The notes below the pieces were generated by a model that saw only the letters and a list, made by a program, of their open reading frames with translations, made no database searches and was not told the DNA's origin. A stretch of DNA of 12,107 bases. Origin: Promethearchaeota archaeon. Lineage in GTDB: Archaea; Asgardarchaeota; Lokiarchaeia; Sigyniarchaeales; SOKP01. The stretch lies in NCBI GenBank assembly GCA_011364925.1, contig RDOA01000073.1, forward strand, positions 1 through 12,107, in the 5' to 3' direction. Below are positions 1 to 11,057 of the stretch, piece by piece (position 1 is the stretch's first letter; every line of letters starts with the position of its first letter). Both the position numbers and the translations under genes were made by a program.

Positions 1-78
<78 letters not shown>

Positions 79-3979: not shown

Positions 3980-5584
3980 ATGTCACAATTATCTGGTGTT
4001 CCAATCCTTATATTAAAAGAGGGTTCGGAGAGAAAACAAGGAAAAGACGCTCAAAAAAACAATATCGCTGCTGCAAAAGCAGTAGCAGAAGCAGTGAGAA
4101 CAACATTAGGACCAAAAGGAATGGATAAAATGCTCGTTGATTCTTTAGGTGATGTTACTATTACAAACGATGGGGCAACAATTCTTGACACTATTGATGT
4201 AGAACATCCTGCAGCTAAGATGATTGTCGAGGTAGCAAAAACTCAAGATGATAAAGTTGGAGATGGGACAACTACAAGCGTAATCATTTCTGGGGAATTA
4301 TTGAATCTTGCTCAAGAATTAATGGAACAAGCGGTTCACCCCTCAATAATCTTTAGAGGATATAAGAAAGCGTTGGTTAAATCAAAGGAAATTTTACGTG
4401 AACTTGCCACAAAAATTGAAATTGACGATACTGATACATTATTAAAAGTAGCAGAGACTTCAATGAATAGTAAACTAATCGCTGGCGTAAAAAATCACTT
4501 TGCTAATATTACAGTTAGCGCTGTTAGTCAAATTAAAGAACAACGCGGAGAAAAAACTGTGATCGATTTAGATCAAATACAAGTGATTAAAAAAGAGGGA
4601 AAGAGCTTATTAGATACAAATCTTATCAACGGAATCATAGTAGATAAGGAGATTGTACATCCGATGATGCCAAAATCAATCAAAGATGCAAAGATTGCGT
4701 TAATTACATCATCACTTGAAGTAGAAAAAACAGAATTTGATGCAGAAATTAGAATTCAAACCCCCGATCAAATCAACAAGTTCATTGAAGAGGAAGCAAA
4801 TATGTTAAAATCTCGGGTATCTAAATTAAAAGATATTGGAACTAATGTTGTCTTTTGTCAGAAGGGAGTTGACGATAAAGCTCAAAATTATTTAGCTCAA
4901 GAAGGTATCATTACAATTCGAAGAGTGAAGAGATCTGATATGGAAAAACTTGCTCGGGCAACACATGCAAAATTAGTTAATAATATCTTTGAAATCACAG
5001 AAACCGACTTAGGAAAAGCAGGTAAAGTAGAAGAAAAGAAAATCGGAGACGACAACATGATATTAGTCTCGGAATGTGCCGATCCTAAGGCTGTGAGCAT
5101 CCTAATAAGAGCCGGAATTGAACATGTAGTAGATGAGGCTGAAAGAATGTTTAATGACGCTTTATCAGTAGTAAAGGCGGCAATCGAGATTCCTTATATC
5201 TTACCTGGGGGTGGAGCTTCTGAAATCGAGTTAGCTAAGCGATTAAGAGCCTATGCAAGCTCGATCGGAGGGAGAGAACAATTAGCTATTGAGATATTTG
5301 CTAATGCTTTAGAGATAATTCCCAAAACTCTTGTTGAAAATGCTGGTTATAATCCAGTCGATTTACTCGTTGAATTACGATCAAAGCATGAGGTTGATAA
5401 TGGTCAGTCTTTTGGTATAAACATAGAATCTGGTAAACCTGATGACATGACAAAGTTAGGCATTCTTGAACCATTAATGGTATTATCTCAAGCTATTCAA
5501 TCTGCTACTGAAGTAGCTTCAATGATTTTAAAGATTGACGATGTTATCGCTGCGTCAGGGTTATCTAAAGGCCCAGAAGCATAA
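3980..5584 (+). CDS. ths: Thermosome subunit (group II chaperonin, CCT/TCP-1 family)
   Basis: [31 protein letters not shown] motif, [13 protein letters not shown]; SD-like GAAGTGA 7 nt before ATG. Subunit type (alpha/beta) cannot be determined by eye. Confidence 0.97.
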
Positions 5585-9999: not shown

Positions 10000-10207
10000 T
10001 TCTTATTACAAGAATCCTTTACTTTATTAGTTTAAATAAGAATTCGTTTTCTTAATAATGCTAAATCGGTGTACACTTTTTATAAAACTTAATATTTTTA
10101 AAATTATTTAAAACTAAAATAAAAAAAGGTTTTTATAAGAATTTAGTCTTATATTTTTTGGGATTATATGTTTAATCTTTTAATAATAAAGGTTGTGAAA
10201 AAAGAGT

Positions 10208-10537
10208 ATTAAAGACGACGACATTTGTGCGATATGTAGTTTTCCAAAAGACCTATGTATATGCGATAGCTTAAGCGCAGACGAACAACAAATAATCATT
10301 TCTAACGACCGACGTAAATGGGGGCGCGTGGTCACAGTTATCAAGTTTGAAGGAAATATTGAAGCTAATTTAAAGGATATCCTAACGCAAGCTAAAAGAA
10401 AAATGGCATCAGGAGGAACTGTAAGAGGTAACGAGATCGAACTTCAAGGCGATCATAAACTAAAGCTTAAAAAGTTCCTGATTGATTTAGGTTTTCCTGA
10501 GGAAAATATTTTTATCCAGGAAAGGAAGAACACATAA
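10208..10537 (+). CDS. sui1: Translation initiation factor aIF1/SUI1 (109 aa if started at ATT 10208; the track's GTG start at 10328 is a truncation)
   Basis: In-frame extension IKDDDICAICSFPKDLCICDSLSADEQQIIISNDRRKWGRVVTVI matches the archaeal SUI1 N-terminus (CxxC..PK.LCxC, RRxG). C-terminal 'ASGGTV..NEIELQGDH' SUI1 signature. In-frame TGA at 10196-10198 bounds the ORF. Confidence 0.9.
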   Translation: MKDDDICAICSFPKDLCICDSLSADEQQIIISNDRRKWGRVVTVIKFEGNIEANLKDILTQAKRKMASGGTVRGNEIELQGDHKLKLKKFLIDLGFPEENIFIQERKNT

Positions 10538-10619: not shown

Positions 10620-11057
10620 ATGAGTACACTATACTATAAGGTAATTTTTAAGGGCATTAAGGGTGATTCATCCGAATCATATTCTCTGACTTTTAAAGAC
10701 ATAAATCTAGAAAAACCTATTAAGATTCCCTCTCAATTTTTCGCTTCTCTAAAGTCACTAAGCCAAAAACAAACAAATGTTATAAATTTTCAAAATATTC
10801 GAGAAGTAGTAAAAATTGGAGATTCCGATGACAAATACAATTTTAATTATTATATTGTTGTTCTCTTTACAAATTTAACGGATGGAAATAAAGAGGGTTT
10901 TTTAGTAGGGAATTTAAAAAAACATGGAGATATTTTAATAGGAATTTGGCCTTTTAATCAAGAAAACGATTCATTATCTTCAGAATCAATTTTAGGAAAA
11001 CTAAGGCTCCTAACTGAGGGAAATAAGTTTAAAGATATTTGCGTAATATATTCTTAA
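10620..11057 (+). CDS. Hypothetical protein (145 aa)
   Basis: ATG-started 438-nt ORF filling the gap in AT-rich DNA, with globular alpha/beta-like composition and no recognised motif. Confidence 0.7.
   Translation: MSTLYYKVIFKGIKGDSSESYSLTFKDINLEKPIKIPSQFFASLKSLSQKQTNVINFQNIREVVKIGDSDDKYNFNYYIVVLFTNLTDGNKEGFLVGNLKKHGDILIGIWPFNQENDSLSSESILGKLRLLTEGNKFKDICVIYS

Follow-up and report, generated by a model that had tools for sequence, protein, structure and literature searches.

In bacteria, translational autoregulation has been proven for the infC gene, which encodes IF3 and whose start codon, preceded by a Shine-Dalgarno (SD) sequence, is AUU or, in some species, AUC. As cited in PMC4705826 and PMC6237735, both IF3 and eukaryotic eIF1 limit their own synthesis via a weak start, which for eIF1 is an AUG in poor context (Ivanov et al. 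2010). In archaea, 30S binding and discrimination against non-AUG codons are known for the aIF1 proteins of S. solfataricus and P. abyssi, and with the S. solfataricus factor 30S complexes are reported to form in vitro on AUG and not on AUU mRNA (PMC4705826, PMC6237735). A zinc knuckle is described as a feature of archaeal aIF1 (PMC6237735). For the aIF1 gene of S. solfataricus, a −1 frameshift was proposed (Cobucci-Ponzano 2010), as summarized in the review PMC8211752. SD sequences are called rare in Lokiarchaea by reviews. The literature that could be searched yielded the eukaryotic and bacterial precedents alone and no non-AUG start or autoregulation described for archaeal aIF1, an absence that is in itself no proof.

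The aIF1 gene described here lies in a window (the whole stretch of 12,107 nucleotides that was analysed) of a Loki-type Asgard genome (Promethearchaeota) with 33% GC, in which Ras-family and roadblock-like genes are also found. The gene resembles infC in that the gene of a factor that rejects non-canonical start codons itself begins at AUU behind an SD, in that related genomes keep the unusual codon, and in the proposed logic, by which more factor would lead to less initiation on its own mRNA. The two differ in that IF3 is unrelated in fold and descent to aIF1, which is homologous to eIF1, and in that autoregulation, proven for infC, is proposed for aIF1. Dozens of other genes in this lineage start at ATA, ATT or ATC (collectively ATH), which makes the AUU of aIF1 less exceptional than that of infC in E. 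coli. Compared with eIF1, where the weakness resides in the Kozak context and scanning, that of aIF1 would reside in the codon (AUU, AUC, AUA or CUG) read together with an SD. A poor-context AUG of the eIF1 type was considered for this gene and discarded, as it has an AUU with an SD 9 nt upstream; the underlying logic may be shared. The S. solfataricus case is similar in that the 5' part of the annotated frame looks interrupted, which prompted a recoding hypothesis. Here, by contrast, no conserved shift site or upstream start is found, and the interruption lies upstream of the probable true start, as part of the SD.

The aIF1 gene and its leader

The aIF1/SUI1 coding sequence spans positions 10208–10537 of the forward strand and consists of 109 codons followed by TAA (10535–10537). 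The frame is matched by PF01253 (SUI1) at 1.8e-14, with 54.3 bits against a cut-off of 25.5, and by NCBIfam PRK00939 with 106.7 bits (cut-off 98), positions 2–101 of the 102 in the profile being aligned from residue 4. It is the only SUI1 copy in the 3.9-Mb assembly. The N-terminal zinc knuckle, CxxC...CxC, is encoded at 10226–10264 (forward strand) with Cys codons at 10226, 10235, 10256 and 10262; these correspond to C6, C9, C16 and C18 of the 109-residue protein and are kept in all relatives compared. The length of the protein is likewise close to the 100 or so residues expected of an archaeal aIF1. The SUI1 domain follows at 10283–10498 on the same strand (Pfam match, residues 26–97). By orthology, the protein is assumed to bind the 30S subunit and to discriminate against non-AUG codons. 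Downstream, at a distance of 82 nt, lies a forward-strand ORF of 145 residues (10620–11057) without a Pfam match, and a similar ORF is located downstream of aIF1 in relatives (loci L030 and L089).

Upstream of the knuckle, the frame reads TGA (10196–10198) AAA AAG AGT ATT (10208) AAA GAC GAC GAC ATT (10223) TGT GCG ATA TGT, with no ATG, GTG or TTG in frame between TGA 10196 and the CxxC...CxC motif. The TGA, on the forward strand, is formed by the SD and closes the aIF1 frame on its upstream side. It is followed by a non-coding, A/G-rich spacer of 9 nt (10199–10207, forward strand), which in relatives is 8–9 nt long, varies in sequence and contains stops. The ATT at 10208–10210 (forward strand) is assigned as the initiation codon from its bracketing by relatives, the homologous Met position and the NCBI protein. 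A run of six A residues occupies 10198–10203, and an out-of-frame mini-ORF, GTG AAA AAA GAG TAT TAA (10195–10212, forward strand), arises as a by-product of the SD, the 9 nt that follow it and ATTAA. These elements had been listed in a preliminary description of the locus made from the DNA letters, and the positions given there for the TGA, the ATT, the A run and the mini-ORF, as well as the absence of a canonical start, all agree with the sequence.

The NCBI record of this contig holds a 109-residue protein, MKDDDIC..., initiated at ATT; the start itself is thus already placed by automated NCBI annotation. The gene calls of Logan, ENA and JGI/IMG contain instead a 69-residue form of aIF1 that begins at an internal GTG (10328–10330, forward strand), which is the start chosen by gene finders confined to ATG, GTG and TTG. 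This has a practical cost: in the public JGI, ENA and Logan calls aIF1 has lost its zinc knuckle, and many Asgard annotations therefore give the impression that an essential factor is incomplete or absent.

The SD element, AGGTTGTGA, is located at 10190–10198 of the forward strand, ends 9 nt before the ATT and is complementary to the 16S rRNA tail at window positions 60–77. The 3' end of this rRNA is itself contained in the window (positions 1–77) and terminates in GGATCACCTCCT. An SD-like element complementary to the 16S tail through its GTGA had been proposed at this place; the complementarity stands, but the pairing is described more accurately by aligning AGGuuGUGA with AGGAGGUGA in register; seven of the nine positions match AGGAGGTGA in register and two central ones do not. 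The GAAGTGA cited in parallel for the thermosome gene is indeed present, 7 nt upstream of its ATG at 3980. The duplex between the aIF1 SD and the 16S rRNA is predicted at −7.9 kcal/mol, with AGG and GUGA paired around a 2x2 mismatch, and is stronger than that of 89% of 804 confident ATG genes. A "poor SD context" was therefore rejected for aIF1, whose value falls in the top 11% of the genome. In the same 804 genes, GTGA peaks at −10/−11 and ranges from −14 to −7, and that of aIF1 begins at −13. The spacing of 9 nt is atypical for ATH genes of this genome, which have a sharp optimum at 6.

Further upstream, a T-rich, TATA-like block, CTTATATTTTTTGGG (10148–10162, forward strand), constitutes a candidate promoter about 50–60 nt 5' of the ATT, and in the alignment both g1 and g22 show TATTATTTTTTAG there. 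As judged from this block, transcription would start about 25–30 nt before the ATT. The fixed distance of the SD and the upstream T-rich block suggest a leadered mRNA rather than a leaderless one beginning at the GTG or the ATT. No conserved RNA structure was detected at the aIF1 start by RNAalifold, which predicted zero pairs across 21 family sequences, and the single-sequence fold of the region was no better than those of shuffled sequences (z = −0.28).

Conservation of the ATT codon and competing start assignments

Close relatives were collected from a set of species-representative genomes as 72 loci with more than 70% identity to aIF1. In none of the 72 does the segment from the upstream stop to the CxxC motif contain a canonical start, and the codon homologous to ATT 10208 is ATT in 69 and ATC in the remaining 3. 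The SD sequence AGGTTGTGA occupies −18 to −10 in 70/72. Chance would not account for such agreement. The alignment of sui1 5' regions that had been suggested earlier thus reveals a conserved non-AUG start, and an ATG at the position of the ATT, which the preliminary description had regarded as evidence against its proposal, occurs in 0/72. The layout as a whole is kept in 72/72 and strongly supports the AUU start. All 17 genomes of the same genus retain AAAGGTTG TGA NNN NNN NNN ATT AAA GAN GAN GAN ATT TGT.

A further 60 aIF1 loci of the same order were read. Genus g22 has TGA TAA GAG AGT ATT, with a second stop; TAG CGT or TAG CCT directly precedes the ATT in g14 and g15, placing a stop two codons 5'; some g16 and g23 genomes read TAA AAA ATT; and g17 displays AAGGAAGGAA. 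In three g21 genomes, ATC replaces ATT and the overlapping TAA is lost. Every sampled genus of the family has the odd aIF1 start, with upstream stops as near as one to two codons. Because these stops fall within the three codons that precede the ATT, the latter codons are non-coding and the ATT is the sole near-cognate codon left. The residues encoded after it also bear on the start, as the AAA GAN GAN GAN codons vary mainly at their third positions and the Lys and acidic residues are kept, which indicates that translation begins at or before these codons. Two genera, g18 and g20, and also a second aIF1 clade present in some MAGs have a spacer of 8 nt, which brings the GTG of the SD into frame; the SD motif thus holds its distance to the ATT and not its frame, as expected of an SD and not of a start codon.

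In sister genera, the homologous position is occupied by ATG CCC AAG (g8), TTG CCA AAA (g2) or GTG CCA AAA (g11), and g5, g10 and g12 have ATA CCA AAA, which would yield the same MPK N-terminus. The start codons of these sister genera lie 6–12 nt after GGAG(TGA) or AGGTGA.

A second aIF1 gene, 56–63% identical, occurs in part of the family's MAGs (L071–L079; for example G005:C60, G007:C23, G044:C222 and G116:C58); in it, a perfect GAGGTGA stands 8 nt before ATT or ATA. This gene may be a true paralogue or a product of bin contamination.

SD-guided initiation of aIF1 at AUU 10208 is very probable on this comparative evidence. A start at GTG 10195 would give access to the aIF1 frame through a +1 frameshift (at TAT-TAA-A) or through termination followed by reinitiation at ATTAA. 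In its favour, the GTG-N12-TAA runs across the ATT both in this window and in the majority of g1 and g22 genomes, and PMC8211752 discusses possible −1 recoding of the S. solfataricus aIF1. The mini-ORF is not a stable element, however: g17 has no ATG, GTG or TTG in any frame within 30 nt upstream, locus L034 of g12 lacks the GTG, the ORF stops early and away from the ATT in g16 and g23 (GTG ACA TAA; GTG AAA ATT TAA), and the ATC variants of g21 are without the overlapping TAA. Since the mini-ORF is absent, displaced or deprived of its stop among genera, neither a +1 frameshift nor reinitiation represents a conserved mechanism. GTG 10195 also has no SD of its own, AGGT being found at −5 of the start in 0/804 genes, and reasoning suggests that a shifted tRNA-Tyr or tRNA-His could not pair again on ATT. 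Such a start is very improbable, and a programmed +1 frameshift gene of the prfB or antizyme type was rejected, as a conserved upstream start, a shift site and a zero-frame stop are lacking. The preliminary description had offered GTG 10195 in another form, with one extra A in the A run (a sequencing error or +1 slippage) and a product MKKSIKDDDIC; slippage by RNA polymerase would have the same effect. The removal of one A does open the frame from GTG, and the 8-nt spacer of g18 and g20 puts the GTG in frame. Several same-genus genomes, though, have a broken A run (AACAAG, ATAAAA, AGAAAG, AAAAGG), and these independent assemblies keep the frame relation nonetheless, so that neither an extra A nor homopolymer slippage is the explanation. 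Moreover, the codons that would encode KKS hold TAA in g22 or TAG in g14/g15, and 72/72 relatives agree; this reading, which does not survive the comparison, is the most improbable of all.

A start further downstream, at ATT 10223, ATA 10232 or GTG 10328, agrees with Prodigal-type calls, which pick GTG 10328, and ATT 10223 is also invariant. The Ile before the first Cys (I-C-P-x-C), however, is conserved in genomes with an ATG start as well, the third-position changes and retained acidic residues after ATT 10208 point to translation of these codons, the SD spacing would be at least 24 nt, and a protein begun at GTG 10328 would lack the zinc knuckle and one third of the SUI1 domain. A downstream start accordingly has hardly any probability.

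Non-canonical starts in the genome and across Asgard lineages

The whole genome was scanned for SD-anchored starts using the cores GGTGA, AGGTG, GAGGT and GGAGG, a stop no more than 10 codons upstream and at least 100 open codons downstream. At an aligned spacing of 6, the observed counts exceeded the background for ATG (38 vs 4.2), TTG (18 vs 1.4), ATA (17 vs 6.6), ATT (17 vs 7.8), GTG (6 vs 0.6) and ATC (7 vs 2.6); no other codon was clearly enriched at this spacing, TCT being the next with 6 vs 1.8. Over spacings 5–7, the excess of ATH starts in this genome amounts to about 40; the ATH codons count among the alternative initiators in NCBI table 11. Their typical layout is GGTGA-N6-ATH, in which the TGA of the SD serves as the in-frame stop, and genes of this kind would be truncated by gene finders limited to ATG, GTG and TTG.

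Full-length profile matches support several of these starts (genome G000). They include the ATC start of uS4 (contig C112, plus coordinates 12337–12837, −; profile positions 2–164 aligned from residue 2), the ATA start of PheT (C81, 52236–53909; profile 1–551 aligned from residue 1) and the ATT start of V-ATPase subunit D (C29, 12371–13000). An ATH start is also found in an aldolase gene (C44, 9379–10185, −) and in small GTPase genes (C26, 38151, and C112), where the next canonical start would remove the P-loop. A presumed uL15 was dropped from the ATH genes, as it showed a weak L18e match only.

These genes resemble aIF1 in having an SD, a short spacer and an ATH codon, often with the TGA of the SD as the in-frame stop. 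They differ in their spacing, which is 6 and not 8–9 nt, and in their distribution, since aIF1 shows such a start throughout the family and again beyond it, and most of the others are patchy. Other initiation-factor genes were considered as ATH starters and excluded, the aIF1A copies having TTG and ATG and aIF2-beta ATG. The two aIF1A (eIF-1a) genes are located at G000:C53:28996–29406 and G000:C101:16288–16755; the probable starts are TTG in one (MAKKKGK...) and ATG in the other (MPKMKKK...). An altered initiator tRNA was likewise discarded. The one initiator-like tRNA gene found has a normal CAT anticodon and a GGG/CCC stem; ARAGORN detects 11 tRNAs genome-wide, a number attributed to introns, so that a second initiator may have escaped detection. 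The gene lies on the minus strand of G000:C44, at about 13376 of the reverse complement (GGGCTCATAACCC anticodon arm), and shows an apparent insert after the anticodon stem.

The aIF1 start was compared with four control genes in a panel of 30 genomes, of which 16 belong to the family (12 genera) and 7 to the sister family, the last 7 being drawn from other families at the level of order, class and phylum. Each of the four controls starts at ATH in this genome, which biases the controls towards ATH. Among the 30 informative aIF1 genes, the start is ATG in 4, TTG in 3, GTG in 1 and non-canonical in 22 (14 ATT, 1 ATC, 6 ATA and 1 CTG), with an in-frame GTG inside the SD in 4 of these 22. For uS4, 29 genomes were informative, with 25 ATG, 2 TTG, no GTG and 2 ATH starts; for PheT, 27 gave 23 ATG, 3 TTG, no GTG and 1 ATA. 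The aldolase was informative in 15 (10 ATG, no TTG or GTG, 5 ATT) and V-ATPase D in 21 (10 ATG, 1 TTG, 1 GTG), the 9 non-canonical starts of the latter (8 ATH, 1 ACG) being all within the family, where they make up 9/12. Two more potential controls, uS13 and uS11, have N-termini too variable for codon-exact homology and show a canonical start wherever the region is readable. As the panel genomes are related, these counts overstate independence and describe a pattern rather than test it; within that limit, none of the other four genes has a non-canonical start as stable or as widespread as that of aIF1. The ATH starts of uS4, PheT and the aldolase are recent and scattered, and the odd start of aIF1 is shared by the whole family. 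Beyond the family, a non-canonical aIF1 start occurs in six panel genomes, all control genes seen there being canonical.

The single ACG belongs to the V-ATPase D gene of locus L296 (G152, genus g23), where it appears to act as the start right after an in-frame TGA, behind AAAGGTGA; relatives of this gene have ATT, ATC, ATA or ATG at the same position.

In a phylum-wide sample, ATA starts of aIF1 were found in families f6, f7, f10, f11 and f15. At this position, 6 of the 8 f27 genomes have CTG and the remaining two GTG. Control genes of these ATA- and CTG-using families are canonical. The start is GTG or TTG in f5, f26 and f28, and ATG in about half of the sampled Asgard families; DPANN relatives caught in the scan also have ATG. 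In f27 (GC 44–55%), the CTG members (L098, L107, L128, L109, L093 and L133) carry this codon behind CAGGAG, with a stop two codons before it in three loci, and the GTG members are L135 and L138.

Proposed self-limitation of aIF1 synthesis

The aIF1 mRNA would carry a leader, and AUU 10208 would be selected on it in the ordinary way, under the guidance of the SD. The AGGuuGUGA element would pair with the 16S tail and position the P site some 9 nt further on; its GTG and TGA would be incidental, and the first residue of the protein is presumably Met, delivered by the initiator tRNA. We infer that selection keeps the weak codon on this gene because aIF1 itself rejects non-AUG codons. Discrimination of aIF1 against AUU has been shown in a crenarchaeon and is assumed, by orthology, to carry over to Asgard archaea. 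Initiation on the aIF1 mRNA, as well as on other ATH-started genes, would then fall when aIF1 is in excess and rise when it is scarce. Such homeostasis would follow the logic of infC/IF3 and eIF1, and the family-wide AUU layout hints at a self-limiting loop of this kind.

The AUU may also be a true start without regulatory meaning, in a lineage that tolerates ATH behind a good SD, the codon reflecting a modest expression level or drift. This explanation has an appreciable probability, well short of an even chance. It agrees with the genome-wide scan, in which ATH codons are enriched together with ATG, TTG and GTG at the best SD spacing, and with the profile-supported ATH starts of uS4, PheT and V-ATPase D. 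The presence of some 40 SD-led ATH genes deprives the feedback reading of its main premise, uniqueness, and the retention of ATH at V-ATPase D across most of the family means that retention alone is no proof of feedback. Because ATH starts are common here, uS4 included, AUU may not be a very weak codon in this lineage. The ATG start of aIF1 in about half of the Asgard families sampled also speaks against the loop. An absence of regulation accounts less readily for the fixation of the odd start at aIF1 against its patchiness at uS4, PheT and the aldolase, for the six genomes outside the family in which aIF1 stands apart from canonical controls, for the use of a different codon, CTG, in f27, and for an SD spacing of 9 against the optimum of 6 of other ATH genes. 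The loop is plausible; as a proposal it is weakened by genome-wide ATH use and strengthened by the exceptional retention of near-cognate starts at aIF1 across Asgard lineages. Overall, an AUU start at 10208 combined with selection for a self-limiting aIF1 loop that keeps the weak codon is given a probability of roughly 0.55; for the feedback reading taken by itself, given the AUU start, the estimate is a little under one half.

A broader proposal is that weak-start self-control of e/aIF1 predates eukaryotes, that its Asgard form consists of AUU, AUC, AUA or CUG behind an SD, and that aIF1 dosage also sets the output of an ATH regulon comprising ribosomal and ATPase subunits. This extension is tentative and, on balance, doubtful; if true, it would constitute a global stringency dial undescribed in archaea. 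Archaeal initiation systems that already exist in vitro would allow a direct test of the aIF1 case. Were the loop to prove real, each of the three domains of life would regulate a fidelity factor via its own hard-to-recognise start, and the archaeal version would be found in the closest relatives of eukaryotes, where it would bear on the origin of eIF1 autoregulation.
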